A stretch of DNA of 63,809 nt, counting the filler, from Basidiobolus ranarum (lineage: Eukaryota), in the NCBI GenBank assembly GCA_040143965.1. It is 37 parts of 37 records of this genome, joined end to end, with 100 filler letters (N's around TTAATTAATTAA, not from the genome) between each part and the next. Parts side by side here need not be neighbours in the genome. Positions count along the whole stretch, not along the records: positions 12,142 to 13,773 come from JASJQH010004667.1; 36 more parts are not named here. One strand, written 5' to 3'. Shown piece after piece: positions 765-25,555 of the stretch; position 1 is the stretch's first letter, and the number at the start of each line of letters is the position of its first letter. A program made the translations under genes and the position numbers. The notes under the pieces were generated by a model that saw only the letters and a program-made list of their open reading frames with translations, was not told the DNA's origin and made no database searches.

Positions 765-975
765 TGAAATTTTCAAATGGCAAACTTGATATTATGAAAT
801 TGATTAGAAACAACTTATTATAAACCTAATTTGCAATCCATTACTGGAAATATCTTGTAAATCCCTTGATGACTCACCTAGGAAACTGTCTCAGAATCAG
901 CCAATGATATTGAAGAGCTAGCCCTAAAATACCACTTTTGCATTGGAAATGTTCTTTATTCCACAATATCCTCTC

Positions 976-1636: not shown

Positions 1637-1736
1637 NNNNNNNNNNNNNNNNNNNNNNNNNNNNNNNNNNNNNNNNNNNNTTAATTAATTAANNNNNNNN
1701 NNNNNNNNNNNNNNNNNNNNNNNNNNNNNNNNNNNN

Positions 1737-2677
1737 GAATCTGAAAAGTCAAGGTTCCTTTGAGAACACGTATGATCATGCATTTGCATTGGCTCTGGAT
1801 GGTTTCTCACTAAACAAATATACCATTGGAAAGGCTTGCTGGCCAATGATTTTAATCAACTTAAATCTTCCTCCTTCTGAATGATATAAGAGTCATAATA
1901 TTCTGATACTATCCTTCATATATGGACCTAAATCTGCAGTGCTTATAGATAGCTGCTTGGAGCCTTTGATTGTGGAATTTGAACAATTATCTAATTGGGT
2001 TCAGATGAGTGAATATTTTTTTGAAGCTAATATCATTGTATTTAATGGCAACACTCCTGCCATCAGTAAACTTGGAGTTTTTCGCAGGCACAATGCACTA
2101 TCTTGCTGTTGATTTTGTTAAATCAATGGAGTCTACTCTATCAGACATATGCATTACTACTATCCCAATACAACACTAAACTCCTTGATTTTACCATCAA
2201 GAGCCTGGTGAAATATCAATATGATCACTGATATCAATTCACAAAAGAGTCAGTCTAACATCAAACTTGGTATTAGCCATAAGCCTAAGATTATATTTCT
2301 AAAGGGGATCTGTTGGAGCCAGAGCTTCCCATTGAACACTATGCACTTACTATTCAACAACAGTCCAATACTACTTACTCAGCTTTATAGTGGAAAATTC
2401 AATATGAATAAGCCATTCAAGATAGCATCAAAGTTTGAATCAATTGCAAAAATGCTTGAAAGCAACAAGATACCATCATATTTTACCAGGACCCCCATCA
2501 ATATCCACTCATCTGGCCATTTGTTCAAATGCTCAGACTGGAAGTATTGGATTTGTATCTATTCAAGTGGAATCTTTAAAATAATTCTGCCTGATAAGTA
2601 TTGGCAACATTGGGAGTTGTTTGTGGATATTGTTAATATAATCTTATAGCATCAACTCATGTTGGCAGATTGCAGGC
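1737..2677 (+). pseudogene. CACTA (Transposase_21/Tnp2-like) transposase fragment
   Basis: LALDGF, CWPMILINLNLPP, xMHLLFNN, KCSDWKYW and HWELFV motifs with in-frame stops. Paralog of 9082-10056. Confidence 0.85.
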
Positions 2678-3045
2678 CCTTAACAAAAATAAAATTGATT
2701 TAATCCAGATTGGATCCACTCTCTGAAACAGCAAAACCACTAAAGAACCATAACAATATTGGTGGCTTGCATTCTGCCCAGGATTTTGATGGTGTGATGA
2801 ACATTTCTTGATGGTATTTTGATGGTATTCATACATGTTAAAATATTGATCCTCAAATTTGGCATGCATTATTCAACATCCAGCAATTTTTGTAAAAATC
2901 GAATTTTTGAATGGCAAATTACTGGGTTTACTGCTGTAGGAATTCAAATTAATATGCACGCCCTTATTTAGATATTTTAGGCTTTGTAGTCCAGCCATAA
3001 TGAGAATCAAAAAATACAAGAATTCTGTTGTGTTTAGTCTCTACA
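2678..3045 (-). mobile_element. CACTA right end (TIR CCTTAACAAAAAT) nested in inverted orientation inside another copy's transposase
   Basis: Matches the end starting at 62812. The host transposase is interrupted exactly at this point. Confidence 0.75.
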
Positions 3046-3137
3046 TGTCACAATAAGGAACTGGACAAGGACTGGAAACAATGACACAAGGCTAGAAGGC
3101 AGGATAGTACTTGGGTGTAGACCACAAGACAAGAAAA
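3046..3137 (-). repeat. LTR-F (chromoviral gypsy LTR) fragment
   Basis: TGTCACAATAAGGAACTGG is the reverse complement of the 3' end of LTR 40579-41108. Confidence 0.8.
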
Positions 3138-3371
3138 CCCTAACAGAAATTTGAGGATTGTTATTGTAGGAAAACTATCACAATTTTAATCCATTTGGGA
3201 TTGACCGTTTACTTACCATCATAAAGTCATCAAGTTAGATTTGATTTTTATCAATTTTTTCAGTTTCAGGAGTGAAATATCAAGATCTTGCATATTAGTT
3301 GCACATGATTGGCTACAATCTCAGAGAACTATGGAACAACACATGTGCAAAAAAAGTAACTCAAATTTTAC
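3138..3371 (+). mobile_element. CACTA left end (TIR CCCTAACAGAAAT)
   Basis: Same terminus occurs at 30874, 42924 and, as CACTAGCAAAAAT, at 54580. Inserted into LTR-F here. Confidence 0.75.
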
Positions 3372-3471
3372 NNNNNNNNNNNNNNNNNNNNNNNNNNNNN
3401 NNNNNNNNNNNNNNNTTAATTAATTAANNNNNNNNNNNNNNNNNNNNNNNNNNNNNNNNNNNNNNNNNNNN

Positions 3472-3844
3472 TCTGATCAAGGAATACATGGGGCTTATAT
3501 AGATATTGCAAGGTGAAACATAATATACTGAATAGGGAATATACTGTGGCAAGTTTGAGAGTTGGGGTGTTAGGGACTACAAAGTCCAATACAAAGAGGG
3601 ATGATGTAAAGATGATCAGGTGACCTTCCATGGAAGGTCTTGGCAGAAATACACTCTGTGTGGGATGACATGATTGGTTAGATTCCATGGAATGTTCCAA
3701 AGAACATGACTTCAGTACAAGGTAATCTGGATGAACTAATCCCAGATTGCTAAGAAGGGATGGCACAGCAAATATGATGTCATAATCTAATAATAGAGAG
3801 TTCCATTTGCAGTGGATCAGTATGCCAAGATCAGAATCATGACA
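3472..3844 (-). repeat. LTR-F fragment
   Basis: Reverse complement of the 5' part of 40579-41108. Ends ...GAATCATGACA. Confidence 0.85.
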
Positions 3845-4686
3845 GTAGGTCTTGCAGCTATCTTTGAAATACCGTCAGATTATTGTATAAATAAATTGGT
3901 ACATATTATAGAGATACTTACTCTGAGTTCATGGATTAGGTTTTGTTGCTGTTATTGTGCACAAACTATGCTAAAATCCATGAGCACATTGAACAGAGCA
4001 CTTTGTTGAATAATTAATATACTCTGGAGTCACAATGACCCATTGCATTATGACTATCACTCAGTTTGCTGATACAGTGTTAGTCAGATTAGCGTGGGGT
4101 AATACTAATAATTTCAGATGAAGCATCATTTCACTGCAGGTGTGCTCCATTGGGAACTCCCAGAATGTTTAGGAAGGGCATATAAACTCTAAGCAGTGTG
4201 AAAGATTCAGCTGGGAATTTATTGAATACCAGCTTTAAAGTATGATGCTATCTTGACATTTTCAAGCATATTACCAATCAATTCAAACTATGATCCTATC
4301 TTAATCAGCTTGCTCATATTAAATTATATCCATCCAGTATATAGGTAAAACCATCTGCTCTACAGTGAGCACTTTGGCAATCACACAATGATCTATATTT
4401 GGGTGATTTCATCAAATCTTTAAGATGTGGAATCAGTGGCATTCTCAGGACACTGGTGAAAGCCAAACAACCATTTGGTCATGCATGTTGTATAATTACT
4501 GAAGGATTGGAAGTCATATAATAGCAAGTGCTTTCCATTTGTACCAGGTCTGTGGCAAGCAACAGTTGCCAATCAACTGTAGTAAAAGTGTAAGAGAACC
4601 ACCAAACACCTGGTTACTAAGATTTGCTTGAATTCTTACTCAATAATCATAGATGCTTCCTTTGCAATGAGTGTTAGGAGTGAACT
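3845..4686 (-). pseudogene. Decayed CACTA transposase, C-terminal fragments
   Basis: EFPMEHTC motif (equivalent of FPxERxxG). Similar to 46899-47361 and 62812-63809. Confidence 0.6.
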
Positions 4687-4689
4687 AAT

Positions 4690-5106
4690 AGACTTGTTCT
4701 ATTTTATTGAGCCAGATCAGGCCAGCTAAAAAGTATGCCAGCACAAATTGGCATGATTGGGCACTATCCAGCACGATGTTATTTACCATTTTTGAAACAG
4801 TTTATTTTACTTATGTGATATATTTAAGAAAAGTACTTTTAGACATTATTGCACATTCAAAAGATGATGAAAGCTTTATTCATAGTACCTTAACTCTAAA
4901 GCTCACAATGGATATCTTTGAGTATGGATGTAATAAGAATTAATCAAGATTTTGACTACTTTGCCTAACTTTGATTGAGGCCCACAAAATGATTTTCCAC
5001 CATACTTTCCTGCTACAATGCTTTATCTCTTTAGGAAACCAAAGCTATGTTATACCCTTGCTCTAAAATGGGAAAAAATGTAATTATAAAGCTTTTGCCT
5101 CTCTGT
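4690..5106 (-). mobile_element. PHIS-superfamily (Harbinger/ISL2EU-like) DNA transposon end carrying the transposase C-terminus
   Basis: Terminus AGACTTGTTCYATT after AAT. The minus strand from 5106 reads TERQKLYNYIFSHFRARV*HSFGFLKR, matching the DDE_Tnp_4 motif NxxxSxxRxxVExxFGxLK. Confidence 0.7.
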
Positions 5107-5206
5107 NNNNNNNNNNNNNNNNNNNNNNNNNNNNNNNNNNNNNNNNNNNNTTAATTAATTAANNNNNNNNNNNNNNNNNNNNNNNNNNNNNNNNNNNNNN
5201 NNNNNN

Positions 5207-6444
5207 TTTATTTGCTGGTGTTTTGGCTTGTTGAGAGGTGCTGGGTGTTGGATAAACTTCCTGATTTAGCATTCTTCCAACTGTGTACCCAGTTCCATGG
5301 TGAAATTAAGCTTTTTTGCCAGTATATCAGACTCTGGAATTGCAGATCTTTGTAATGGTGTGACAATTTTGGTAAGTGGGACAGTAGAGCCAAAACTCGC
5401 TGGCTCCTTTGCTTTTCCCTTGGGTTTACTAACTTCCTGCTCCTTCAGTACTTCTTCAGCTGCTTTTCTTTTTTTTCCAAGTCAATAATTGTGTACATTT
5501 TTGAGATGTTTCATCAATAGGCCTATACTAGACCAATTACCATTTGCTTGCAAAAACCCTGTATAAGCCACATTAAATAAGTCAAGAACCTTCAGAGTAA
5601 TGCCTGGTTTTTGGTTTTTCCATAATTGACTTAAATCCAGGGGATTTTGGGCAAAATTCCACACAGTTTCCAAAATGTTCAACCACTCATCATCAGAGCA
5701 AGTGATGGCAGCTCTGACATTCAGAGTCTTTTGGTTTGCCGGTTTTCCTATGAGATTTCTACTTTCATGTGGCCAAGCAATTTTGGGTTGTTGTGTAGGC
5801 TTAATGGTCCAACACATATTTTGCTCTGCTAGATTGTCATGGTGACATTCATACGTATGGTGTGGGATTGATTGAAATCTCATTTGAGAATGGATGGAGA
5901 GGGCAGCATGTTGCTGTAGCTCAAGTACAGCAATCTGAAGGTCTTGTATCATTGTTGAGTGACTCTCTAAATGTTGACTAGTTGGTTCCAAACATGGCAT
6001 TAATTGCAATATTTTGGTGTTATTGCTTGTCATGGCCTGTATAGCGACTTCATAGTTTTTACTTATGAATGCTTACAAATCATTACAATGTTCTGCCGGC
6101 AATTCCCTTGTTGTAATAATTTTATCCATATTTTCTACAGAGGGTTGTTCAATAGTGGGCAAGTAGACATTTTTCAAGTTGATGGTCTTGATGATGTTTT
6201 GGGTAAACTATGCTCAACTATTGAATTACTACCTAATTGGGGGATTATTATCACTTCACTTGCACTATTGCTGGAAAGGAAAACATCTGGTAAATGGATT
6301 AATGCTCTATCATTACTTAAGTTAGTTTCCAGAATGTTAATGCCTTTCAGTCTGCTGTTCATGCTGGTTTTTCTCCTCTTGTGCCAGCGGCTTTGGTTTG
6401 GAAGCTCCTTTTGACTTAGGTTTTGAGTGCTTTTTGAATGGCAT
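5207..6444 (-). pseudogene. CACTA accessory ORF2, best-preserved copy
   Basis: Includes the 183-aa ORF 5482-6033: a coiled-coil followed by DDEWLNILETV...WKNQKP...NGNWSSIGLLMKHLKN. Confidence 0.75.
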
Positions 6445-6654
6445 TGAAATTTTCAGATGGTAAACTTGGTGCAATAAAATTGCTTAGAAACAGCTTTTAA
6501 TAAACCAATATTGCCATCCATTACCAGATATTGTGTAAATCCCCTGATGACTCATCTGTGACACTGTCTCAGAATCAGCTGATGATATTTATGAGCTATA
6601 CCTAAAATACCACCCTGATATGGGAGGTGTTCTTTTTTCCACAACATACTTCTA

Positions 6655-6841
6655 ATGCCGCAACACAAACATTTAAAGAAGCCCTGCTGTTATTGTCACA
6701 AATTCTTGTGCTATGAAAGCCACAGGATTCATAAAAAAATAATCACAAGCATGGTCATTGTACAAAGCCACCAGCTGCACAAAGCCTGGTGTAAAACAAC
6801 AGTAATAAGTATACTAAATTGACTTTAGTTTTGCCCATTGA
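6655..6841 (+). pseudogene. CACTA transposase 5' end
   Basis: Homologous to the sequence starting at 976, about 210 bp from the ORF2 start. Confidence 0.65.
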
Positions 6842-6941
6842 NNNNNNNNNNNNNNNNNNNNNNNNNNNNNNNNNNNNNNNNNNNNTTAATTAATTAANNN
6901 NNNNNNNNNNNNNNNNNNNNNNNNNNNNNNNNNNNNNNNNN

Positions 6942-8071
6942 CATTACCTAAAGACCACATGTCAATTGGTAATCCAAAAGGAATTCCGATTGACACCTAA
7001 ATCGAAATTAACCAGGTTAAGTACCGTTACTAGTGAAAGTAAAATACTGAAATATTACCTCTGGTGCTCTATAATTCATAGCTTGCACATTAAATGTTTC
7101 GTAATAGTGAGGTAATTCGCTAACACCTATCGAATTTCCAAAGTCTAACACTTTGATATCCAAAGAGTTGGCTAAATTTCCAAGTTGGGATATAAAAATT
7201 TTGTTTAGAATGATACTGATGTACACAATGGTGTTGCTTATTGCATTGCGTAATTCTTTCTAACCTTGCGAATGAAGTATATTGTCGGGTTTGAGGTCGG
7301 CGTGTAATATTCCCAGTTTTGATAGCAAAAGAAGCGAAGTGACAAGCTGACAGGATATACGACGAGTAATAGAAAGACGGCGAAGCTCTGCTTCACGAGG
7401 AAGATGCAAAGAATGTTCTGGATTTAGTTCTGCGGTATGTGAGATGGTTAACGGACCACCTGATAACCATTCTAGTACAATACATACGTAAGAGCCGAAA
7501 TTAAACGTATCAAATATTTGTACTAGCTGAAAATTCTTTTCGTCATTAAATATATTTAGCTGTCGAAGTCTTATAATTTCCTATATCCGTTGAAATCAAA
7601 ATTAGCTTGACGTTTAGAAAAAAACTATTACAATTAACCTTCGGCGATATTTAATAGAATGGTATGAAATGTGAGTGTTTGTATTTACCGTGATCGCTTG
7701 TCGACTATATTTGTTGTGAAGCACTTTCAAAGCAACTAAACGTTTTTTCGGGTGAATTAAATCTCGGGCCAACAACACCTGAGAAAAAGAGCCTGTTCCG
7801 ATCTTTTGGAGAACTTCGTAACGTTTTCCTAAAATGAATTGAGTTTCGCTGAAATCTCCACTTGAATTGATGGTCTCAAAAGTCGCATTGTCCACTTTAA
7901 AAGAGAAAGTTAAAAATCGTGTAAAATGATTGAAAAATCGAGATCAAAATTTTGGGAAGGAGACGTCAAAGACAGATCACTGTAAAGGGGAAGTGGCCTG
8001 AAAAGAGTTCGTGTAAGATCAGAAGGATAATTATTTTGAAAAATACCTATTGCCGAAGAATTCAATAGCAT
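6942..8071 (-). CDS. CMGC Ser/Thr kinase, DYRK/HIPK-like; spliced, 3' truncated by contig end, 5' end uncertain
   Basis: Exons give IGTGSFSQV, VALKV, HADLKPDN, KVLDFGNS, VQAMNYRAPE and PIDMWSLG, separated by GT-AG introns (e.g. about 7688-7581 and 7264-7172). CpG retained. Confidence 0.9.
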
Positions 8072-8675
8072 TGCCTATAGGCTGACGATGACTTGATAGT
8101 GTGGATGTCAAAGTTGGTTTTTAGTTGAGTCAAGAACAAAGATGTTTTGCACAAAAACCTATCACACACAGACAATATCGAGCGAGGTGAAGGTATTTAT
8201 TTGGTAATTGAGGAAGGCAAGAGGTGGAGATGAGCGATGGAATTGAATTCGGCAGAAACAGTGTCTGGAAGGAAAAAGGGTTAGGAATCAGGATCATAAT
8301 ATATATATAGATGAGTAATTTAAGAAAGAATATCACAGTTATTTCAAAGAATCGACATTACTCGGTGTCATCAATATGAGATTGCAATGTATTTATACAC
8401 TTGTTATATCAGTTGGTTAATTTCCGACATTACCATTAGTTACCAAGTGGGCGGGTATTAATCGAATTTGGTAGTCAGTATTTTTGTGAAGAACCATCAA
8501 TCACGGCTCTGTACTGCGCCATTTCTCTGAGAAGAGTACTGCGACGCTACAAGAGGTGAGAGAGATCTCTGGGCTNNNNNNNNNNNNNNNNNNNNNNNNN
8601 NNNNNNNNNNNNNNNNNNNTTAATTAATTAANNNNNNNNNNNNNNNNNNNNNNNNNNNNNNNNNNNNNNNNNNNN

Positions 8676-10309
8676 ACCTTGGTTATTCCAGTACCAATGG
8701 TAGTATATCAGAAGTTGAGGAAGAAAACAACGGTTTTGTTATGGACTCTTTGTTATCAGCAAACATTATCCACTCATAACACTTACAGTAAAGGAAGCAG
8801 CTTTGATTATTGAGGAGTGGAGAGTTCAATCTAATCTTAGCAACTGGGTGTTCATTGGTTTTCTTACACTTTTACCATAGTTGATGGGTAACTGTTACTT
8901 GCCACAGACCTGGCACAAGTAGGAAACACTTATCAATTGTATGACATATACTCCTTGAGTAGGTACATTACCTTCATGTCCAAATGGTTGTTTGGCTTTC
9001 ACCAGTGATCTGAAAAACCTGAAGTCATGTTCTGTTTGCACTCAATTGGCAATCACTGAATCAGGTTAATATAGTTCATATTTGGCCTACATTCCATTGA
9101 TTTCCCATCTTAAAGTTTTGATGAAATTACCCAAATATAGATTATTGATCCAATACCAAAGTACTCACCATAAAGCTGATGGTATTACCAATATAAATAA
9201 TGGATATCACTGCCAGAATCTGAAAAGTCAAGGTTTCTTTGAGAACACATATGATCATTCATTTGCCTTTGGTCTGGATGGTTTCTTGCTAAACAAATAT
9301 ACCATTGGAAAGGCTTGCTGGCCAATAATTTTAATTAACTTAAATCTTCCTCCTTCTAAATGGTATAGGAGTCATAATGGTTTGATACTATCCAACATAT
9401 CTGGACCTGTATTACCAGTGCTGATAGATAGCTTCTTGGAGCCTTTGATAGTGGAATTTAAATGGTTTTCTAATGGGGTTCAGATGGGTGAATATTTTAT
9501 TCAAGCTAATATCATTGTATTTATTGGTGACACTCCTGCCATCAGCAAACTTGGAGGTTTTTGCAGGCACAATGCACTATCTTGCTGTAGATTTTGTCAA
9601 ATCAATGAAGTCTACTCCATCAGGAATATGCAGTACTACTATCCAAATACAAAACTAAACTGCTTGACTTTACTGTTAAGAGCCTGGTCAGATTTCAACA
9701 TGATCACTGATATCAATTCACCAAATATTCAGTCTTACATCAAACTTGCTATTAGCCGTAACCCTAAGATTATATCACTAACAAGGATCAACTGGAGCCA
9801 GAACTTCCTATTAAGCACTATGCACTTACAATTCAACAACATATCAATACTACTTACTCAGCTATATAGTGGAAAATTCAATATGAATGGGCCATTTGAG
9901 AGAGGATCAAAGTTTGAATTGATTTGGGGAATGCTTGAAAACATCAGGATACTATCATATTTTACCAGGACTTCCATCAACATCCACTCATCTAGGCATT
10001 TATTCAAATGCAAAGGCTGCAGTTTTGGATTTGTTTATATTCAGGCGGATTCTTGAACAGATTTCAGTCTGAAAAGCATTGGCAACATTGGGAGTTGTTT
10101 GTGGATATTTTTAAAATATTATTGTGGTATCAACTCACATTGGTGGATCTCAGGCAGATACAGTGATTGTTCAACAATTTTGTAATTGTATCTCAGAGAC
10201 TTTATTCCAGCCTTAAAGAAGATCGACTGAACCTCAGCCAGTATTAAACACATTCCCTGCTGCATTTTTCACAATGCTTACAGATTATAGCTCATTGCTA
10301 TACATTCGG
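8676..10309 (+). pseudogene. CACTA transposase (Transposase_21-like), includes 324-aa ORF 9082-10056
   Basis: CPNGC...CSVC, YIPL, FGLDGF, WPIILINLNLPP, DSFLEPLIVE, GDTPAISKL, CRFC and xMHL motifs. Confidence 0.9.
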
Positions 10310-10409
10310 NNNNNNNNNNNNNNNNNNNNNNNNNNNNNNNNNNNNNNNNNNNNTTAATTAATTAANNNNNNNNNNNNNNNNNNNNNNNNNNNNNNNNNNN
10401 NNNNNNNNN

Positions 10410-10711
10410 AAGGACTACTTTGACAAAACTCATCCCCTCCAACCTAAGCCACTACAAGTTGATGACCTTTTCCTGGAATATGATTCCACTCTTGACAAAC
10501 AATGGAGAAGGAAGTTTGACAACCAATGGAGAGGCCCATTAAATATGTTAAATTTGTAGGTAATGGAAGCTATTACACAGCAGAACTAGATGGAACAGAA
10601 CTCAGACTACCAGTTGCCAGGAACCAACCAACAATATTCAAGACTTGGGGAAACAACTCAACCTGCTGAGTTTGGTTTTTCACTTGAGTTCAAAATTCAG
10701 AGAGGGGTGGA
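10410..10711 (+). pseudogene. Ty3/gypsy (Ylt1-like) integrase C-terminus plus PPT
   Basis: LDKQWRRKFDNQWRGP...AELDGT. Purine tract AGAGGGGTGGA precedes the TG. Confidence 0.75.
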
Positions 10712-12041
10712 TGTAGTTGGGCAGCATTGCTACCCACTGGCAGGTTGACTTATTTCCACTCCAAGCTAATATCATTACTATTGCACAATTTCTATTTTAT
10801 TATCCCTATTTAACCTACCCAAGTTTTTTATTGCAAAATATGGGCTGTTTGGAGGAACTTTAGAAAAGTGGAGTTGTGAATAGCTTTGTGAGATTATTAT
10901 TTATTGTACAGAAATAAAGCATTGCTACATTTTGGTGGAAATAGAGAAAACTATCACTGGGTTGTGTTCAGAACATCTTTGGGAGTAAAATGAGCTATCT
11001 TTGGGGCAATTTAAACAAGTTTGAAATTAATTACATATATATAATATATGTTCCATTTTTCAGCCAAGTGATATTTGACTAAGTAATGTTAACTAACTTA
11101 TAGGTGATTTATCAAATAGTTAGGTGTATAAAGATAGAGATAACAAATATGATAAAGACAACAAACTTCAACATTTTCTAGCTAATCATATTGCGCCATT
11201 AGTATGATCCCGTATTATTTAAGATTTATCATTAGCCCTATTATTTTCTGGAAAATTCTACAATCTTCCAAAACATTCCATAAGATTCTTGGAATATTTG
11301 ATGATTGATTGAGCTTTGACCAATCAAAACTTGATTTTGCCGGAACATTCTATGACTTCCTGGATTATTCTACAACCTTCTGGAACATTGCATGGATTAC
11401 AAATCTTATGATTTATGGTGATATCATAACCCCAGATCCCCACCAATAGAATACTCTGGAACTTTCCGGAAATTATCATTAGTAATCATTTCTACCATCA
11501 CATAAATTTAAACAGGAGCCATGTATTTTCAATAAAATATCATCCTGGTTTTCAACTAACAATTACTACTTGTGATCACCCCTTATTTTCATCATCACTT
11601 ACAAGACCTTTGAAGAGGAAGCTCAAGAGAGACTACTAGAGGCAGTTACAGGCTACTATGTGACTAGAAAGGACTTGACTGGCTCAAAGGAAGTACTGAC
11701 AGGTAGGTGTTTTATTTCTGAAACTTTATATTTTTTTCCCTAGCTGTATCTGCATAGGCAAGGAGCTTTTCATATCCTTGGATAAATCACTACTAGTGTA
11801 TCCTTGTTCAAGACCCCGCTGGCTGAGTTTACAGTTGTTTTTGATTGGATATACCCTTTTGATCTGATCATTCTCAAAGGACGTTGAAGCCAGTATATTC
11901 TTTTGTCAGGTGCCAGCATATTATTCAACAGAAAGATGGACATTGCATTATGGTTTATCAGTTCTCAGACATTTCTAAAGGCTTGATTCTCTATCACAAA
12001 GACCCACAAGGCAAGAGACAGACCCATATTACAGTGCATCC
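10712..12041 (+). repeat. LTR-G (long gypsy LTR) interrupted by an LTR-B copy at about 10832-11173
   Basis: Starts TGTAGT after the PPT. Co-linear with 59206-60370. Confidence 0.75.
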
Positions 12042-12141
12042 NNNNNNNNNNNNNNNNNNNNNNNNNNNNNNNNNNNNNNNNNNNNTTAATTAATTAANNN
12101 NNNNNNNNNNNNNNNNNNNNNNNNNNNNNNNNNNNNNNNNN

Positions 12142-12324
12142 ATTTGACGTGATTTGGAGAAGTTTTGAGAAAATAGTGGAAATTGGTAAAAGTGATCTAA
12201 TTGATATTTCTATCAATTAGAGCAATAAACAAATGTTTTTGAATAACAGAATTGAGTGTTAAATAATCAGAATATGAATAAACTAACTACTAAATAATGA
12301 GTTGCTATTTACCTAATTTCAACA
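12142..12324 (-). repeat. LTR-I (copia LTR) fragment
   Basis: Reverse complement matches the LTR that starts at 30423 after a copia PPT. Confidence 0.65.
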
Positions 12325-12415
12325 ATCACACCATTAAAATCCCTGGCAGAATGCAAGCCAGCAATATTGTGATGGTTCTCTGATGGTTTTGCTATTTTGG
12401 AGGGTGGATCCAATC

Positions 12416-12686
12416 AGTATCATATAAATTTTACTTTTCTTAGGGAAAGAGGATAGTATGGAGTATGGTGACTGCATCTGAACACAAAGTCTAAGGCCAA
12501 TCAGTTGCTAGTATAGCTGAAATGCCAAAGTACCATACATTGACAGACTAGGTTAAGGTTCCCTAGCAATATAGGCATAGCATACAAGGACTGGTAGCTC
12601 AGTGGTTAGAGCACCTTGCTAGAGTGAAGGAGGTCCCAGGTTCAAATCCTGGCCAGACCAATATTTCTCCCTAAATAATTTCAACA
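12416..12686 (+). mobile_element. ~270-bp LTR-like insertion containing a tRNA-like sequence
   Basis: Ends ...AAATAATTTCAACA exactly where a copia gag is cut. The left edge interrupts a CACTA end fragment (12325-12415). Only one copy is seen. Confidence 0.5.
12588..12660 (+). tRNA. tRNA-like cloverleaf, 73 nt, loop anticodon AGA, short variable loop; probably a pseudo-tRNA carried by an element
   Basis: GGACTGG-TA-GCTC-AGTGGTTA-GAGC-A-CCTTG-CTAGAGT-GAAGG-AGGTC-CCAGG-TTCAAAT-CCTGG-CCAGACC-A. Perfect D and T stems and A/B boxes. One mismatch each in the acceptor and anticodon stems. Confidence 0.8.
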
Positions 12687-13454
12687 GAAACCTGATGAGC
12701 TAGTTCTGACTTTTCATTTTTGTTGTAATTTCTTGATTTGCAATCTTGTAACTGGTGTCCTGGTTTGTTACAACCATAGCATAAACTTGGTTTTCTTCTT
12801 TTGTAACCTTTGTACTTGCAAAAGCTATGTTTTCCAGCTACAAAAAGAGCCACTTCCTCAGATTCTTTATCAAATTCTTACTTCTGAGATGTTGATCCAT
12901 TAGCCTTGCCACCACAAACTCTAAAGACAACTTGTCAGATCTTGCTTCCAAAGCTGTGACCAAGTTCAAATACTGTTTTGGTACACTACTTAGAATAGTC
13001 ATAATAATATCTTCTTCCTGTAAAGTAGCACCAATATTTTCTAGTTGTTTTGCCAAAGATCTCACATTTGCAATATGAGTAACCATGCTGTCAGACTCTT
13101 CCAGCTTTATATTGAAAATTTTTTGTCTTAGAAAGAGTCTATTAGCAAGACTCTTTGCTTCATAACACTCTTGCAATATAGTCCAAGCTGGATGGGAAGT
13201 CTTTGCATATTCAATATTCCCAAGTTGTGAATCCTTTAAACTGTGACAAATGACATTATAGGCCTTCTTGTCTCTTTTCTTGTAAGCTTCCAAAAACAAT
13301 GGGTTAGAAGGTTCCTTTTCATCTCCAGAGACTTCATCCCAAAGCTCCCTGTCTTCCAGCATGATTTGCATTTTGAACTTCCAGAAATTGTATTTTCTCA
13401 ATCAATCTTTTCAACACTTGGGTTAATAAAAGGGGTAGTAGTGGCTTCTGTCAT
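12687..13454 (-). pseudogene. Ty1/copia gag with zinc knuckle
   Basis: YNFWKFKMQIMLEDRELWD (UBN2-type gag) and CYGCNKPGHQLQDC. Confidence 0.9.
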
Positions 13455-13468
13455 GCTGAGCAGGTTAG

Positions 13469-13730
13469 TGTCACAATAAGGAACTGGACAAGGACTGGGG
13501 ACAATGACAAGAGGCTAGAAGGCAGGAGAGTACTTGTGTGTAGACCACAAGACAAGACAAGACAGGACAGGGAAGATACTTTGGCAAGAATCTTTATTGC
13601 TGACTGGCATTGATCAGACTAAGGTCTGATCAAGGAATACATGGGGCTTATATAGATATTGCAAGATGAAACATAATATACTTAATAGGGAATATACTGT
13701 GGCAAGTTCAAGAGTTGGGGAGTTGGTGAC
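13469..13730 (-). repeat. LTR-F fragment
   Basis: Begins TGTCACAATAAGGAACTGG. Confidence 0.8.
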
Positions 13731-13873
13731 TGCAAGCTGTACTGTGGTCTTTTTGAGTTGAGGATTCAGTTGANNNNNNNNNNNNNNNNNNNNNNNNNNN
13801 NNNNNNNNNNNNNNNNNTTAATTAATTAANNNNNNNNNNNNNNNNNNNNNNNNNNNNNNNNNNNNNNNNNNNN

Positions 13874-14882: not shown

Positions 14883-15385
14883 ATGATTATCGCACTATTA
14901 CTGAAACTCTCAGTAAATTAAGCAGCGCCGCCAAAATAGGAGAGTATACACTTAAAGAGTGGTTAGAGATTTCTTGGAATGATGACTAAAAAAAAGGCAG
15001 TAAATGTGACGAAAGAAGCTGCAATTACTAATTATACCATGTATATCTCCCTAGGAAAATACAAATCAGCTTTCGAAACACTACAACAAACACTTCGAGA
15101 GTTCACTCGGGAGGCAACCCTTCGACAGCCGCAAATTGTTATTGTTCGAATTAATGGCACAACAAAAAAAATTCAGTTCAGATGGATTGCTGGTCTTGCT
15201 TGGCTTATCGTTATGGCAATATCAGCAGGAATATTTGAAATATCATCCAAAAGGTTGCGCTTGGACGCCCTATTACAACAAGTCCTTGATTCATGGCTAG
15301 TGGTTCATAGCGTGGCTGTAATCCTGGAAGAAACAAATTTAGGAAAATTTAGCAATGAGCAAACTTCTTATGACTGGCCCTTGAG

Positions 15386-15504
15386 TGTTAGGGGGATGAA
15401 AAGCACCAGATGGTGTGGACTTTATTTAGCTTAAATACTAATCTAAACAAAGTGACAATCAAGACATCAATCTTTTAAGATATTGTGACAATACTGGATC
15501 ATAT
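15386..15504. repeat. LTR-C terminus
   Basis: TGTTAGGGGGATGAAAAGCACC. Same family as 22525-22879 and 43712-44871. Confidence 0.8.
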
Positions 15505-15604: not shown

Positions 15605-15877
15605 TGGTGGAAATACAGAAAACTAACACTGGGGTTGTGTTCAGAACATCTGTGGGAGTAAAATGAGCTATCTTTGGGGCAATTTGGACAAGTTTGAAAT
15701 TTCCAATATGGAATTTCTAATTCTCACATTATTCACATATATAAGTAATATAGGTTCCGATTTTCATCTAAGTGATATTTGACTAAGTAATGTTAACTAA
15801 CTTATATGTGATATATGAAATAGTTAGGTATATAAAGATAGAGATAACAAATATGATAAAGACAATAAACTTCAACA
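15605..15877 (-). repeat. LTR-B (copia LTR) fragment
   Basis: Ends AATAAACTTCAACA. Orientation set by the PPT at 60580-60590. Confidence 0.85.
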
Positions 15878-16276
15878 AATATTTCAGATGCTTAGCAATT
15901 CTTCTAGTTTTAGGTTGCTGGTAAAGCATATTGATGTTGTTGAGTTATGTCTGATCTGTCAACTATATGCATATGTAGAGACTAAACACAAGATTCTTGT
16001 ATTTTTTGATTCTCATTAAGGCCGGAACACAAAGGCTAAAAATACCTAGATAAACATATGTGTATGAATTTGAATTCCTACAGCAGTAAACCCAGTATCT
16101 TCCCATTTGAAAATTAGATTTTTGCAAAAATTGCTGGAAATTAAATAATGCATATCATATATGAGGATCAAAGATTTAACATGTATGAATACCATCCAGA
16201 TACTGTCAAGAAGCCACCATTGCACCATCATAATCCCTGGCAGAATGCAAGCCAACAATATTGTGACAGTTCTCTA
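15878..16276 (+). mobile_element. CACTA 3'-region fragment
   Basis: Reads LLVKHIDVVEL, homologous to ORF 63007-63537. Confidence 0.7.
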
Positions 16277-17235
16277 TGTGGAAATTAGCATTGCCTAAAC
16301 ACCTATATAGTCATATATAGCTTAGTCCTCATTTATCTTATAATTCACTAAGATATTATCAATTATTCTCAATTGGAATTTACTTAGAATATTTTTGCAA
16401 ACCTAGAAGTTCTCACATATATAGATTTTTCAAACTTGTGCTAGAAGCCCCAAACTTTGCACACATGTTCCTGGGACCTTCCTCAACATACTCTACATGT
16501 CAGTTTGTTTACATCTTGACAAAACTATAAATGTCAACTTTCTACTCAATAAATCAATGAGTGAAAACCACCAGTTCCTATAATTCTCCAAATCACTTCC
16601 AACAGGCTCCCAAGTACTTTAACAGGTTATGAGCCCCAAGCTTGCACTTGCTGTAGTGTCTACTTCTCAAATTTATGGAACTTTTCTGTCTTCTGAAAAA
16701 TTGGATGGAACCAATTATCAAGTTTGGAAAATAAAAATGGAAATGCTGCTGCAAGAAAAAGGACTTTGGGACGCTGTTGTAGGAGAAGAAAACAATGTAA
16801 AACTATCTGAAACCAAAGTTTTACTCCAGGTTCAAAAAGAATAAAGTGCCCTTAACACAATTTGTCTTAATGTTAAGGACAAATTGCTAATTCAATGTTC
16901 AAGAGCTAAAACTGCCAAGAGGGTATGGAAAGCCTTGGAAGACACCTACCAAACAAGTTCTGCTGCCAACAAGATGTTTCTAAGAAGACGATTCTTTAAC
17001 TTAAAAATGAAGCCAGAAGAAGATATTAAATCACTAATTAATAGAGTTACTATTTTAGTGGATGAAATGGAATGCATTGGAATACCTACCACTGATCAAG
17101 ATATCATAGTTACAGTCCTGAACAGCCTGCCACACAAGTTTCAGAGCCTAGTAATGGCTCTAGAATCAAGAACTGAAAATTTGACCTTAAATTATGTATT
17201 TGGCAGACTTCTGGATGAAGATTTACACAAATCAG
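16277..17235 (+). mobile_element. Ty1/copia 5' end: LTR-A (16277-16624), PBS (16625-16636), gag
   Basis: TG...TACTTTAACA, then GGTTATGAGCCC, then EKLDGTNYQVWKIKMEMLL gag with an internal stop. Confidence 0.9.
16625..16636 (+). promoter_or_regulatory. Primer-binding site complementary to the anticodon arm of initiator tRNA-Met
   Basis: GGTTATGAGCCC is the reverse complement of GGGCTCATAACC. Also at 37772-37783 and, reversed, 23023-23034. Confidence 0.85.
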
Positions 17236-17335
17236 NNNNNNNNNNNNNNNNNNNNNNNNNNNNNNNNNNNNNNNNNNNNTTAATTAATTAANNNNNNNNN
17301 NNNNNNNNNNNNNNNNNNNNNNNNNNNNNNNNNNN

Positions 17336-18965
17336 GTAAGAATTTGGAAAAAGAATCTGAGGAAGTGGCTCTTTTTGGAGCTGGAAAACATAGCTTTGGC
17401 AAGTACAAAGGTTACAAAAGAAGGAAGCCAGGTTTATGCTATGGTTTTAACAAGCCAGGACAACAGTTAAAAGATTGCAAACCAAGAAATTACAACTAAA
17501 ATGAGATGTTGGAACAAGCAAATCAGGTTTCAGACAAAGAGGAAGTTTTATTCATTTTGGCCCTATCAGTGACCTCTGAACAAGACTGTAAGCCATGATA
17601 TACTGATTTCTGGACCCCGTTAACATTTCTCTAAACAAGAAAACTAGTTTAAAAAACTCAAAACTGATGAAAATAAGAACGAATATGAGATCAGACTGGC
17701 CACTAGAAGCTCTGGGAGGGGGAGAAGTTGAAATAGATCTTGGGGGCATCTCTGGTTACATGTGTTTGACACTGAAAAATTTGCTATATGTGCCCAGGAT
17801 AGCAAAAAATTTATTTTTGGTGAGTAAGGCTTCATCTGAGAGATATAGCTTTAATTTTGATCAAAATGGCTATACAATCAGGGATAAAAAAGAGAATTAT
17901 GTAACTTCTAGAGCTAAGCAAAATAATGTGGATAAACTCTATTATATTAGGTCAATATATGAACAAGTTAAAACTGGCACAGCTGAAGAGATAGACTGGA
18001 AAATATGGCATATGAGATTGGGTCATCTAGGAGCAGAAAATATGAGAAACTTAATCAAAAACAAGATGGTCTTGGGACTAAATTTTGTAATTCCACCAGA
18101 TCTGGAGCTATGTGAAGGTTACCCATATGGTAGGCAAAACAGAGAGCCATATGTTGGCTCTGGAATGAGCAAAATTGATCACAGATTGGGCCTGATCCAC
18201 ACAGATCTGTGTGGCCCAATGCAGACAAAATCCTTAGGTAAAAAACGGCATTTTATGACCTTTGTTGATGATAAGACAAAGTATACTTGGGTGTACTTTC
18301 TAGCCAGTAATGATGAAGCCTTTGATACCTTCAAGAAATTCAAAGCAATGGTGGAGACTGAACCTGGTCTCAAGATTAAGATTATCCATACTGATAATGT
18401 AGTGGAATGTATCTCAAACCTCTTCTCTAACTTCTGCTCAACACATGGAATAATACAGCAGACTACAGTGCCATGTTCTCCACAATAGAATGGAGTAGCA
18501 GAATGTGCAAACAGATCAATATTGGAAAAGGCAAGATCAATACTTCAAGATCAAGATTTACCAAAACAGTTCTGGGCTGAATTGGATGCAAATGCAGTAT
18601 ATATTAGCAATAGATGTCCTTCAAGGCCTCTATTGATTATGACACCTTTTCAAGCTTGGTTTGGAAGTAAACCTGATGTGGCTAATCTCAGAGTTTTTGG
18701 CAGTACTGCATATGCAATGATTCAAGACCAGAAGAGATCAAAATTAAACTGCAAAAGCCAGAAATGTCTTTTTTTGGGATATTGTGATGGAACAAAAGGG
18801 TACAGACTATATGACACAGAAAATAAGAGGCTAATCAAGTCAAAGGATGTGGAATTTTCTGAAGAAAATATTTCAATCAAAACAATCCAGGAGCAAGAAA
18901 ATCAACCACAAATTGATGATAATTCTTCTTTTTCTCACCAGAGCCTGATCAGTGAGAAAAAGATT
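17336..18965 (+). pseudogene. Ty1/copia gag knuckle, protease, GAG-pre-integrase and integrase
   Basis: LYVP, WHMRLGH, LIHTDLCGP, FVDD, TDN, PQ*NGVAE and FLGY...GYRLYD motifs. Confidence 0.92.
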
Positions 18966-19450
18966 NNNNNNNNNNNNNNNNNNNNNNNNNNNNNNNNNNN
19001 NNNNNNNNNTTAATTAATTAANNNNNNNNNNNNNNNNNNNNNNNNNNNNNNNNNNNNNNNNNNNNCCCAGTAATTTGCCATTCAAAAATTATATTTAGAA
19101 GCAATAACTGTTGAGCACAAACCTCAAGTGAGACATTCCAGGTTGATGCATAGAGCTGCATGCCAGCAGCAATGGCTGGTTGACACATTAAGTGAAGGCT
19201 CCACATCTGACGAAGAGACTGTAGATGCAAACAAACCACAAACTAGACCAGATGAGCCAATGCATACCACAGCGCAGTGACCCCAAGCCACAACACATGC
19301 AGGCCAAGGTAGAGGAACTTCAGCAGGATTAAACTGACCACTCAGTGCAGAGGTTCAAGCAAAGCTCTTTCCATGGAAATATCAAGGAGACAACAAAAGT
19401 AACAGAAGCAGATCAGCATGTACTGCTTCAAACCTAGGCAACTGCTGAAT

Positions 19451-20300
19451 ACTCTTGATAATACTTACATTATCCTATCTTTACTGTTTAGCACATCATG
19501 CAAAATCAATATGGATTGCAGTTAAATATAGCATAAATAGCTTTAGTTACATCATGATTGCTTATGTGTTTATGAAACACTGATAGTGAGAAATTGTCAT
19601 AAATAAAAAAAATCAATGCTAGCCTATTTATACAAGTGATTTCACTACAATCAAATGAAAAATGTCTGTCAATAAAAAGCATGTGCAGCCATATTGGCTT
19701 GATATGGCTCAATCTGTTCACCTTTTCACCCAATTAGAAGCTTACATGATTGAATGAATAATTTGCTGATCTAAAAATGATGAATCAAGCAATCTTGATT
19801 ACTACTATCATACTGCAGATCAATCCATCATCAAGTGCTGTGATTTGTCACCAGTGTGCCAAAGCTACTTGTGTTTTGTAATGCTGGAGCTGTTGTGCCC
19901 AATTGAAAATCAGGATACTGTGTTGGTGAGGGACAAACAATTGGCCTAAAAACATGTGAATGTCTTGGTTATACATTTGATTGGGTAAGTTACATTAAAA
20001 ATTGTTTATTGTTAAACATTCAGCAATTTGTAAGTTACAAACTAGGGGATGAACTTACCTTGTCAGTTACTCAATATTGTAATTTGGCAATACTAAATTG
20101 GGTAACTTGGTACAGGCTGGCACAATATCTCCAATAAAATCATTGTGTCCAATTGTGGTGGGATAGTGCCATATTGTCCCTTATAATGTCTGATCAAGTG
20201 TTCTAGGACCCAGCCATGGTAATTGACAGATTGTGCCAGATGGTGTACTAGCAGGCTGGATTGAGTGGCACAATCTGACCTGGTCCAATGGAACAAGTCT
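19451..20300. mobile_element. PHIS-family transposon, second end
   Basis: Ends ...AATGGAACAAGTCT followed by ATT. Reverse complement of 49192-50041. Confidence 0.7.
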
Positions 20301-20436
20301 ATTATGTCTTATTATGCAAGCTCCTGAATATCTCTAATGATATATTTACTTTTCTACTATATAAAGCACCATATACTTCTAAGAATAAAGTAGCTAAAAC
20401 ACACTATCATAAGTTGCTATAATACACAAAGTCTAT

Positions 20437-20695
20437 TGTGAAAATATGGGCTGTTTGGAGGAACTTTAGAAAAGTGCAGTTGTGAAAAGCTTGGGGAGAT
20501 ATTTATTTATTGTCCAGAAATAAAGCATTTATACATTTTGATGGAAATATGGAAAACTAATACTGGAGTTGTGTTCAGAACATCTGTGGGAGTAAAATGA
20601 GCTACATTTGGGGCAATTTAGACAAGTTTGAAACTTCCATTATGGAATTGCTAATTCTCACATTATTCACATATATATATAATATATGTTCCAAT
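20437..20695 (-). repeat. LTR-B fragment, preceded by an LTR-H fragment at about 20305-20410
   Basis: Matches the other LTR-B and LTR-H copies. Confidence 0.75.
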
Positions 20696-20795
20696 NNNNN
20701 NNNNNNNNNNNNNNNNNNNNNNNNNNNNNNNNNNNNNNNTTAATTAATTAANNNNNNNNNNNNNNNNNNNNNNNNNNNNNNNNNNNNNNNNNNNN

Positions 20796-21976
20796 CATGG
20801 TGAAATTAAACCGTTTTGCCTGTATATCTCACTCTGGAAATACAGATCTTTGTAATGGTGTGAAGAATTTGGTAAGTGGGATAGTAGAGCCTAAACTCAC
20901 TGGCTCCTTTGCTTTTCCCTGGGATAACTAACTTCATGCCCCTTTACTACATCTTTAATGGCTTTTATTTCTTTTGCAAGTGAATAATTATGTATCTTTT
21001 TGGGACGTTTCATCAATAGGCATATACTAGACCAACTGCCATTTGCTTACAGAAACCCAGGTTAAGCTACTTGAAACAAGTCATGAACCTTCAGAGTAAT
21101 GCCTGGTTTTTGGTTTTTCCACCATTGGCTTGAATTGAAGTGATTTTGGGCAAGATTCTGCACAGTTTCCAAAGTTTTAAATAACTCATCATCAGAGCAA
21201 GTGACAGCAGCTCTGACATTCAGAGTCATTTGGCTTGCCAGGTTTTCTATGAGATTTCTATTTTCATGTGCCCAAGCAATTTTGGGTTGTTGTGTATGAC
21301 TGTTGATCCAACACATATTCCACTATGCTAGATTGTTACATTGATGTTCATATGTATGGTGTGTGATTGCTTGAAATCCCATATGAGAATGGACAGATGG
21401 AATGGTATGTTGCTGTAGATCAAGTCCAGCATTCTGAAAGTCCTGTAACATTTTTTAGTGACTCTCTAACTACTGAATAGTAACTACAGAACACTGCATT
21501 AATGCAATAATGTGGCATTATTGCTTGTCATGGCCTGTATAGCAACTTTTTAGTTTTAACTAATGATTGCATACTAATCATTATGATGCTCTGCATGCAA
21601 TTCCCTTGTTGTAACAACTCTATCCATGTTTTACGGATGGTTGTTCAATACTTGGCAAAGTGGCCATTTTGGAAGTTGATGGTCTTGAAAGTGTTTCTGT
21701 TGAACTTAGCTCAACTTTTGAATTATTATACAATTGTGGGAATATAATCTCTTGACTGGTACTATTGCTTGAAAGGCACATCTATTAAATTGATTAATGC
21801 ATCATAAATACTTGAATGAGTTCCAGTCATGTTAATGCCTTCCAAAATTAACAGTAGAATGCTAGAATGATCATCAACTAAGTCCTCTGTTCTGGCTGGT
21901 TTTTTCCTTCTGTGTTAGCAGAATTTTGCTTGGAAGCCAATCTTAATTTAGATTGTGAACACTTTTTGAATGGTAT
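20796..21976 (-). pseudogene. CACTA accessory ORF2, third copy; a CACTA 3' fragment follows at about 22180-22424
   Basis: Co-linear with 5207-6444. Confidence 0.75.
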
Positions 21977-22524
21977 TGAAATTTTCAGATTGTAAACTTG
22001 GAGTAATGAAATTGCTTAGAAGCAACATAAAATAAACCAACATTGCTATCCATTAAAAGAAATATCTTATAAATCCCCTGATGACTCATCTGTGGCACCG
22101 TCTCAGAATCAGCTGATGATATTGATGGATATATTTAAAATACCACCCTTATCTATGAGCTGTTCTTTTTTTAAAATTTATAAATTACTGGGTTTACTGC
22201 TGTCATAATTTGCATTTATATGTGTACCTTTGCTTGGATGTTTTAGGCTTTGTAATCCAGCCATAATGAGAATCAAAAAATACAAGAATCTTGTGGTGTT
22301 TAGTCTCTACATATGCACATACTTGCCTGATCAGACAGAACTCAACAACATTGGTATGCTTTACCAGCAAACCAATGGTGGAAAAGCTGCTAAACATCTA
22401 ATATTTTATAAAAACTGACACTTGNNNNNNNNNNNNNNNNNNNNNNNNNNNNNNNNNNNNNNNNNNNNTTAATTAATTAANNNNNNNNNNNNNNNNNNNN
22501 NNNNNNNNNNNNNNNNNNNNNNNN

Positions 22525-22879
22525 TTTCTGCTTTGCAACATTCATACAAATACTCCTGATCTCCATACATTAGTTAAGAAACTACAAAAGTAGTTATGGC
22601 TTCTTTGTTTTGTTTGAAATAAAGATTTCACCTTTGGGTGACTGTCTCCCCCCCTAACCCTTACCCTCCCTTACCCTTACCAGAACATCTATACCCTAAC
22701 CCTTAACACTGTATTTACATCCTCAGAACTGGATCATATTGGTCATCAAGTCAAGTATGGATATCATCCAGTTTTGTCACAATATTTTAAAAGATTGCTG
22801 TCAAGATTGTCACTTTGTGTAGATTAATATACAAACTAAATAAAGTCCACACCACTGGGTGCTTCTCATCCCCCTAACA
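22525..22879. repeat. LTR-C variant inserted into copia gag, with an internal CCCTAA/CCCTTA-rich patch at about 22648-22708
   Basis: Ends ...CATCCCCCTAACA at 22879. Confidence 0.75.
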
Positions 22880-23407
22880 CTTCATCCCCCTTAAGTCCTT
22901 TTTCTTGCAGCAGCATTTGAATTTGAATTTTCCACACTAGATATTTGGTTCCATCAAATTTTTCAGAAGATGGAAAAGTTCCAGGAATTTGAGAAGTGGA
23001 CATTACAGAGTGTGCAGGCTTGGGGCTCACAACCTGCTTAAGTAGTTGGGAGCCTGATAGGAATTGCTTGGAGAATTAGAGAAATAGGTGGTTTTCTCTT
23101 ATTGATTAATTGAGTTGAGAGTTGACATTTATAGTTTTGTGAAGATGTAAACAAACTAATGTGTAGAGTATGTTAGCTAACTATTATGCAGAATATGCTA
23201 AGAAAGGTCTCAGGAACATGTGTGCAAAGCTTGGGGCTTCTAGTACAAGTTAGAAAAATCCATATATCTGAGAACTTCTAAGTTGGTAATACTATTCTAA
23301 GTAAATTCCAATTGAGAATAATGGGTAGTATCTTAGTGTAATATAAGATAACTAAATACTAAGCTATATATGACTATATAGATGTTTAGGCAATGCTAAT
23401 TTCAACA
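22880..23407 (-). mobile_element. Ty1/copia 5' end: LTR-A (23035-23407), PBS and gag start
   Basis: Reverse complement of the region starting at 16277. Confidence 0.85.
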
Positions 23408-25179: not shown

Positions 25180-25555
25180 TGGGAAAATAGGAGCTGTTTG
25201 GAGAAACTTTAGAAAAGTGGAGTTGTGAAATAGCTTTCTGAGATAATTGTTTATTGTCCAGAAATAAAGCATTTATACTTTTTGGTGGAAATACAGAAAA
25301 CTAACACTTGGGTTGTGTTCAGAACATCTGTGGGAGTAAAATGAGCTATCTTTGGGGCAATTTGGACGAGTTTGAAATATCCAATATGGAATTGCTAATT
25401 CTCACATTATTCACATATATATAAAATATATGTTCCGATTTTCAGCTAAATGATATTTGACTAAGTAAAGTTAACTAACTTATATGTGATATATGAAATA
25501 GTTAGGTGTATAAAGATTGGGATAACATATATGATAAAGACAATAAACTTCAACA
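25180..25555 (-). repeat. Complete LTR-B with unrelated flanks and no TSD
   Basis: TG...CA, 376 bp. Flanks are TCTAC and GGAAT. Confidence 0.85.

Follow-up and report, generated by a model that had tools for sequence, protein, structure and literature searches.

A complete tRNA cloverleaf lies at 12588-12660 of the analysed Basidiobolus ranarum DNA, between a dispersed repeat on its left and a broken copia gag gene on its right. The question raised by this locus is what a tRNA-like sequence does in such a place: is it a tRNA gene of the host, a relic of such a gene, or a promoter carried inside the long terminal repeat (LTR) of a mobile element? The first-pass annotation of the window (the whole 63.8-kb stretch of DNA that was analysed) had favoured the last of these, and proposed an Ajax-like, Pol III-driven LTR family in a fungus, represented by an insertion of about 270 bp starting at 12416. 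The core of this idea proved to be the best supported reading, on account of an LTR terminus at the gag break, a last 20 nt resembling the end of a resident copia LTR (LTR-A), and a layout like that of Helenus elements, whereas the Ajax label and the left boundary had to be abandoned. The host is indeed a fungus, Basidiobolus, and not a rust. With a probability of about 0.6, the segment 12446-12686 (241 bp, hereafter the unit) represents the 3' part of an LTR that carries, in the manner of Helenus, a tRNA-derived Pol III promoter. From left to right, the locus comprises the following features.

12142-12324, minus strand: start of a copia LTR (LTR-B, TGTTGAAATTAGG...), which cuts the repeat R1 at 12325; outside the element.
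12326-12445, plus strand: last 120 bp of the dispersed repeat R1, the left neighbour, ending in the family terminus ...TTGTTAGGG; outside the element.
12446-12587, plus strand: upstream part of the putative LTR (U3-like), unique in the window, starting where R1 stops, with 0 CpG; its true 5' end is missing or unrecognisable.
12588-12660, plus strand: tRNA-like cloverleaf of 73 nt (ARAGORN, Rfam tRNA), a putative internal Pol III promoter.
12661-12686, plus strand: 26-nt tail and LTR 3' terminus (U5-like), of which the last 11 nt, TAATTTCAACA, occupy 12676-12686.
12687-13401, minus strand: copia gag (Retrotran_gag_2), the target, outside the element, broken at 12687 just past its decayed zinc-knuckle region.

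The cloverleaf is unambiguous as a structure. A tRNA-Ser(aga) at 12588-12660 (+) was the sole ARAGORN call in the whole window, and the same segment scored 58.6 bits with Rfam model RF00005, for which the gathering score is 29 (E-value of 7.3e-12 in a 1.1-kb search and of 4.2e-10 in the whole window); no second tRNA match was obtained with RF00005 over the whole window at E-values up to 1. Box A (TAGCTCAGTGG, 12595-12605, fitting TRGCY..YGG) and box B (GGTTCAAATCC, 12639-12649, fitting GGTTC) are both intact. A 26-mer and a 24-mer taken from the tRNA-like part gave 0 matches in two exact-pattern metagenome scans.

Seryl-tRNA synthetase requires a long variable arm. In the Rfam alignment, the variable region of the cloverleaf is 5 nt long and there is no Ser-type long arm, so the Ser AGA anticodon sits on a class-I body, i.e. 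one with a short variable arm. Two stem pairs, 3:70 and 31:39, are mismatched in the same alignment. The T-run directly after the tRNA-like part is TTT only, and a run of four T residues is absent from the 26-nt tail, the first TTTT being found at 12711, already inside the copia. The long arm, full stem pairing and T-run terminator of a functional tRNA-Ser were thus all absent at 12588-12660, with no TTTT within 50 nt, and this segment is not a working tRNA gene. In these respects (the cloverleaf, its intact boxes, the AGA anticodon on a short-arm body, the lacking terminator and the resulting doubt about tRNA function) the first-pass annotation was borne out.

The CpG content leads to the same view. 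No CpG is present in the unit, against 10.95 expected, nor in its tRNA-like part, against 5.36 expected; the loss of CpG had been noticed beforehand, and is complete. Calculated in 2-kb blocks, the CpG observed/expected ratio of the window is strongly bimodal: blocks occupied by transposons have values of 0.02-0.15, those with host genes (6-8 kb, 14-16 kb, 28-40 kb and 56-58 kb) values of 0.5-0.8, and TG and CA are in excess in the window (1.36 and 1.35, respectively). As a control, a U3 snoRNA gene at 36386-36610 (+), full length and recognised by RF00012 with 62.5 bits, was found to contain 8 CpG vs. 10.6 expected. The CpG state of the unit is therefore like that of the surrounding transposons and unlike that of host genes, and this speaks against a host tRNA gene that is, or was until recently, functional. 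The CpG, TG and CA pattern is compatible with decay driven by 5mC and directed at the transposons of this Basidiobolus. One ORF of a host block, encoding a P-type ATPase (33759-34400, -), matched two B. ranarum proteins at 97% and 87%, a B. meristosporus protein at 75%, and then proteins of Mucoromycota at about 50%, which places the window in Basidiobolus. Less informative were a DUF3472 ORF, which matched itself alone, and the gag, for which the Atlas returned copia clusters with plant labels that do not help the taxonomy.

The right edge of the unit is defined by the gene that it interrupts. The gag ORF at 12838-13401 (-) was assigned to the Pfam family Retrotran_gag_2 (E 2.9e-42), and the stretch 12687-12881 has 89.8% identity with 17531-17336, read on the other strand. 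When the three copia sequences were aligned, the gag homology was seen to end exactly at 12687, whereas the copias at 17.5 kb and near 48.7 kb continue past this point, as had been claimed for the first of them. At the break, the minus-strand reading switches to TGTTGAAATTA, the inverse of the terminal 11 nt of the unit. This sequence has six exact matches in the window, vs. 0.21 expected from shuffles, and the other five are all LTR starts that were defined independently by repeats: four of LTR-A (23407-, 37424+, 41798- and 50983+) and one of LTR-B (12324-, the match lying at 12314-12324). A further LTR-A copy, at 16277, carries TGTTGAAATTA with one mismatch. The gag break exactly at 12687, together with the LTR-type 11-mer, means that a right edge at 12686 and its LTR-like character stand, in agreement with the initial observation that this end resembles other LTR termini. 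To the left, no pol of the broken copia was found by tblastx of 16277-22200 against 1-13500, in which only LTR-like repeats were matched (99-913, 5296-6638 and 10834-11070).

The left edge proved to be different from the one first proposed. The segment 12326-12445 is the end of repeat R1, and is 90.8% identical to 62931-62812, 83.5% to 2798-2678, 83.9% to 41965-41854 and 73.9% to 53796-53683; all five copies diverge after the same base past ...TTGTTAGGG. Since the R1 copies all stop at the base corresponding to 12445, the unit starts at about 12446. An edge at 12416 would fall within R1, and the length of about 270 bp is reduced to 241 bp. The R1 family has the following members in the window, with a sharp common terminus, CCCTAACAAAAATAAAATTG..., on one strand.

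62811-63809: R1.
41849-42706: R1.
53680-54574: R1.
2678-3046: R1.
15878-16275: R1.
12326-12445: R1, the copy that adjoins the unit.

The fullest copies of R1 exceed 900 bp. Their ORFs matched no Pfam family at an E-value of 0.001, an Atlas look-up gave low recognition and unnamed clusters, and chains of repeat matches tie R1 to a Transposase_21 (CACTA-type) ORF at 9070-10056. Judged from these matches, R1 could represent a DNA transposon end. Next to two R1 ends, at 16276 and 41798, there are copies of LTR-A. An LTR-like repeat of about 220 bp, R3, starting with TGTCACAATAAGG and devoid of a tRNA-like part, is present in five copies in 64 kb, one of which is inserted into R1 at 42706/42707. 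R3 may be a solo LTR or TRIM family, and its copies are located as follows.

13469-13736, plus strand: R3.
42707-42924, plus strand: R3.
50144-50364, minus strand: R3.
40841-41111, minus strand: R3.
3046-3137 and 3472-3582, plus strand: R3.

Other repeats of the window include a tandem or segmental array at 43707-44871, with units of about 120-260 bp that are 82-100% identical, and related segments at 15384-15504 and 22700-22881. Pairs of 44-N runs 12 bases apart recur about every 1730 bp (37 pairs, e.g. 12042-12085 and 12098-12141); by their regularity they look like masking rather than gaps in the assembly, and they hide some repeat boundaries, e.g. at 60371-60470 and 20696-20795.

A second copy of 12446-12686, even a diverged one, was not found in the 63.8-kb window, either by word-7 blastn (best non-self E 0.78) or by nhmmer (only the self match), which confirms that a single copy is visible. 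Both strands of the unit were also aligned locally with 11 repeat pieces (22 comparisons, 100 shuffles each). The sole score above all shuffles was that of 12460-12476 with 13719-13735 (16/17 matches; score 27 vs. a shuffle maximum of 26), and this match was treated as a chance one in view of the 22 comparisons made. Upstream of its terminal 20 nt, the unit has no similarity to any LTR in the window.

The intact outline of an LTR element is likewise not seen. Inspected by eye, the unit has no 5' TG or TGTT-type start, and the right flank, GAAAC (12687-12691), is not duplicated before 12446 or before the candidate starts 12458 (TATGGAG), 12467 (TGGTGAC) and 12504 (AGTTGC), none of which shows a clear inverted repeat. 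The absence of a target-site duplication is expected if the left end of the unit has been lost. No partner LTR, primer-binding site (PBS) or polypurine tract (PPT) for the unit was found in the window. A purine-rich run at 12443-12456 was considered as a PPT and rejected, its first bases belonging to the R1 terminus, and the occurrence of AAAGAGGATA both at 12446 and after the break point in the copia near 48.7 kb, on the opposite strand, was taken as chance. The interpretation of 12142-12686 as a single TRIM was also discarded: it has two TAATTTCAACA ends 362 bp apart, but the two "LTRs" share the terminus alone and the "internal part" is the R1 terminus. The missing TG end, the missing duplication and the unrelated flanks (the R1 terminus on the left, copia gag on the right) had all been entered as caveats at the outset, and they remain so.

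The terminus of the unit was then compared with those of the resident LTRs. The copia LTR-A is 348 bp long (16277-16624), reads TGTTGAAATTA...ACTTTAACA, and has the 3' end ...CTCCCAAGTACTTTAACA. The last 20 nt of the unit, CTCCCTAAATAATTTCAACA, aligned to the last 18 nt of LTR-A. In the comparison with the LTR-A 3' end at 51285-51314, 17 of the 20 columns are identical, and this score was reached by 3/2000 shuffles; with two other LTR-A 3' ends the figures were 29/2000 and 67/2000, and the similarity to the fourth copy was not significant (904/2000). LTR-B, at the left of the locus, is also of copia affiliation: 12247-12331 is 87% identical to 30500-30416, a region located after a copia reverse transcriptase. 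Another LTR family, R5 (about 350-370 bp), starts with TATTGGGAAAATATGG and ends with AACTTCAACA, the latter in four copies, which shows that LTRs of this genome commonly end in ...TTCAACA; the similarity of the unit end to R5 3' ends was reached by 244/2000 and 100/2000 shuffles. The R5 copies are as follows.

10826-11173, plus strand: R5.
15605-15877, plus strand: R5.
25184-25555, plus strand: R5.
60471-60579, plus strand: R5.
46699-46904, minus strand: R5.

With both edges and the terminus in hand, the possibility of a host relic can be weighed. According to this explanation, a host tRNA, once functional or already a pseudogene, has been stranded between transposon insertions, and a deletion has brought an unrelated fragment of an LTR end next to it, now the last 11-26 nt of the unit. 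A relic of this kind would agree with the single copy of the unit in the window, with unrelated flanks that lack a target-site duplication, and with the good score of the cloverleaf (58.6 bits). It would, on the other hand, need deletion ends within about 15 nt after the tRNA and within 26 nt of the LTR end, and it is opposed by the Ser anticodon on a short-arm body without a terminator, by a CpG count of 0 vs. 11 expected where host sequences have ratios of 0.5-0.8, and by the similarity to LTR-A, which reaches 20 nt back from the end. We therefore regard a host relic as unlikely.

A promoter within an LTR has precedents in the literature. Helenus elements are TRIMs ("TRIMp3") with a tRNA-derived sequence in their LTRs, described from Pucciniales (113 families), three Agaricomycetes, six animal phyla and Selaginella (Kojima 2024, Biology 13:119, PMC10886601). 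The whole element consists of two LTRs around a short internal part with a PBS and a PPT, and measures 311-1263 bp; the fungal LTRs are 106-284 bp long (Table S1), insertion duplicates 5 bp of the target, Copia is proposed as the source of mobilisation, and some families are known only from solo LTRs and fragments (PMC10886601). In many Helenus "tRNA" predictions the anticodon disagrees with the body, Ser-AGA calls being listed for three rusts (Table 2), and Helenus accounts for hundreds of spurious predictions in rusts, such as "tRNA-Ser-AGA" and "tRNA-Thr-AGT" (PMC10886601). Ajax, by contrast, is a 5S-carrying group of two nemerteans, and Cassandra is a plant TRIM with 5S rRNA in its LTRs (PMC10886601). 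The attribution of tRNA to Ajax, from oomycetes, and of 5S to Helenus in the first-pass annotation is thus a swap of names, and oomycetes do not occur in PMC10886601; its description of Cassandra as carrying 5S agrees with that source. A tRNA-carrying TRIM in a fungus is already known, given the fungal Helenus families of PMC10886601.

The unit was compared with the published Helenus consensus sequences by word look-up and by eye, with no computed alignment; the LTR layout was compared with the 26 complete consensus LTRs of the first part of the supplement and a few more (PMC10886601). In these LTRs the tRNA-like part is in the sense orientation, in the 3' part, and is followed by a T-rich tail; the tail was about 14-52 nt in the five that were measured by eye, and ends in ...ttcaaca, ...tctaaca or ...ttcaca. 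In the word look-up of the Helenus supplement, three of 12 words from the window were found and nine were not, which indicates that no published Helenus family is a close relative. The word gctcagtggttagagcac occurs there in seven places, in fungal, bivalve and wasp families, and the 21-mer ggtcccaggttcaaatcctgg in Helenus-4 and Helenus-16_CroRib and, by eye across a line break, also in Helenus-2_MLP. The sequence taatttcaaca has one place in the same material, where it closes Helenus-2_PTrit-LTR. Among the entries covered, ...acaagactgg... was seen by eye ahead of the tRNA-like part in Helenus-4_PGr and Helenus-2_MLP, as in the unit, and ...ttttccctaaaat... after it in Helenus-4_PGr; Helenus-9_PSt and Helenus-6_CroRib also combine the CTAGAGT "Ser-AGA" loop with a short variable arm. 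With more than 100 fungal families to choose from, these short resemblances are suggestive only, and the common T arm may reflect merely shared tRNA ancestry.

The resident copia offers a second connection. The sequence GGTTATGAGCC follows LTR-A directly at 16625-16635 and 37772-37782 (+) and, with one mismatch, at 23024-23034 (-), and in the window it was found only after copia LTR-A. This primer type has been assigned to the tRNA-iMet anticodon loop and to Copia (Kojima 2024, PMC10886601), and it opens most of the fungal Helenus internal regions among the DataS1 entries covered (PMC10886601). From its sequence signature, the "half-tRNA" type of priming appears to be present in an early-diverging fungus.

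The Helenus layout bears on a further explanation, in which the unit belongs to an ordinary autonomous copia-like LTR, driven by Pol II, with a passenger tRNA fragment or tRNA-derived SINE inside; in a variant, it is a bare SINE fragment. No short internal region is in evidence in the window, as would be expected in this case. Nevertheless, the tRNA-like sequence is full, has kept both boxes, and lies in sense at the position typical of Helenus, and the 142 bp upstream of it are not common to any copia LTR in the window. As for the bare SINE, the tail, ATATTTCTCCCTAAATAATTTCAACA (12661-12686), contains no A-rich or simple-repeat tract and the unit ends in an LTR terminus. An ordinary LTR with a passenger, or a SINE fragment, thus seems improbable.

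It remains to consider the strand. LTR ends are inverted repeats, so the terminus alone does not fix it; the reverse complement of the unit end was matched to LTR starts at levels reached by 31/2000 (LTR-A at 16277), 7/2000 (LTR-A at 37424), 7/2000 (LTR-B) and 291/2000 (R5) shuffles. Reading on the plus strand is favoured by the match to the LTR-A 3' end, which extends past the inverted repeat, and it also gives the Helenus orientation. The opposite, an LTR start running leftwards from 12686 (TGTTGAAATTA... on the minus strand) with the tRNA-like part antisense in U3, would have the orientation of the broken copia and the first 11 nt of LTR-A and LTR-B (7/2000 shuffles each), but we consider it highly improbable, since the similarity to LTR starts stops after 11 nt while that to the LTR-A 3' end covers 20 nt, and since in all the Helenus LTRs compared, drawn from part of the supplement, the tRNA-like part is sense-oriented and close to the 3' end.

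For the preferred reading, an LTR 3' part with a tRNA-derived promoter, which accounts most simply for the features as a whole, the following history can be proposed. A copia-type integrase would have placed the element within the gag of an older copia. The R1 terminus would subsequently have come to lie at 12445, and the 5' part of the LTR may have been displaced, separated or lost as R1 and LTR-B arrived. Decay by CpG loss and point mutation would have followed. The whole 241 bp may belong to one LTR and, by analogy with the published model, its parent may have been a TRIM, driven by Pol III and moved by a copia of the LTR-A type. In such an element, as in the Cassandra/Helenus model, boxes A and B would recruit RNA polymerase III, and transcription would begin in the 5' LTR, near the first nucleotide of its tRNA-like part, run through the tail, PBS, internal region and PPT, and end in the 3' LTR, the tRNA-like part and tail serving as R-U5. 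Reverse transcriptase and integrase would be supplied by the resident copia, of which the LTR-A family, with its matching terminus and GGTTATGAGCC primer-binding site, is the candidate. As it stands, the copy is dead, being truncated, with no partner LTR, no CpG left and two broken stem pairs.

A wider interpretation can be put forward tentatively, namely that Basidiobolus has a Helenus-type, Pol III-promoted TRIM family, mobilised by a resident copia primed by the tRNA-iMet anticodon loop. Such a family would be the first fungal one outside Dikarya, and either very old in fungi or independently born. The published screen was seeded from Repbase and widened only to relatives of positive genomes (PMC10886601), and by this design early-diverging fungi were outside the survey of Kojima 2024. 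A literature search, which covered titles and abstract openings for part of the records, found no publication tying Helenus or such elements to Basidiobolus. What would be new is the presence in Basidiobolomycota, seen from one truncated copy, a modest range extension. If genome copies confirm it, the fungal range of tRNA-carrying TRIMs, so far rusts and a few mushrooms, would come to include an early-diverging lineage, and this would support a repeated origin wherever copia elements and tRNA-like Pol III promoters meet. In itself, one decayed copy is of no functional importance. Such LTRs do inflate tRNA gene counts, and annotators of Basidiobolus should expect the same artefact.

Among known systems, elements targeted to tRNA genes also place retrotransposon sequence within tens of bases of a tRNA(-like) sequence. 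Ty1 and Ty3 of yeast, and TRE and DGLT-A of Dictyostelium, lie with an intact terminus towards a functional tRNA gene of the host; at the present locus, in contrast, the neighbouring copia is interrupted within gag, and it is the side of the tRNA that bears the LTR terminus. Like the unit, SINE2 elements contain a tRNA-like part that provides an internal Pol III promoter and has decayed beyond function as a tRNA. They begin at the tRNA head, however, end in an A-rich or simple-repeat tail and are mobilised by LINEs, whereas the unit has 142 bp of unique sequence before the head and a copia-type LTR terminus 26 nt after it. Cassandra and Ajax are alike in having a promoter derived from a Pol III gene inside the LTR of a small non-autonomous element, although theirs is derived from 5S and not from tRNA, and their hosts are other ones.

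Helenus comes closest. The unit differs from it in being a truncated, putative single LTR, without a TGTT start, partner LTR, PBS, PPT or 5-bp duplication, in having only TTT after the tRNA-like part, and in its upstream region and longer words, for which the look-up gave no match in a published family. Its host, Basidiobolus (Basidiobolomycota), also stands apart from the published fungal hosts, which are Pucciniales and a few Agaricomycetes. What the two have in common is a sense tRNA-like sequence, with both boxes, towards the 3' end of a short LTR (a putative one in the unit), followed by a short tail (26 nt in the unit) and ...TTCAACA, with the terminal 11-mer as in Helenus-2_PTrit; an anticodon that misfits its body (Ser-AGA on a short arm); a length of at least 241 bp, inside the published 106-284 bp; and a link to Copia, both through the terminus and through the primer type of the resident copia.
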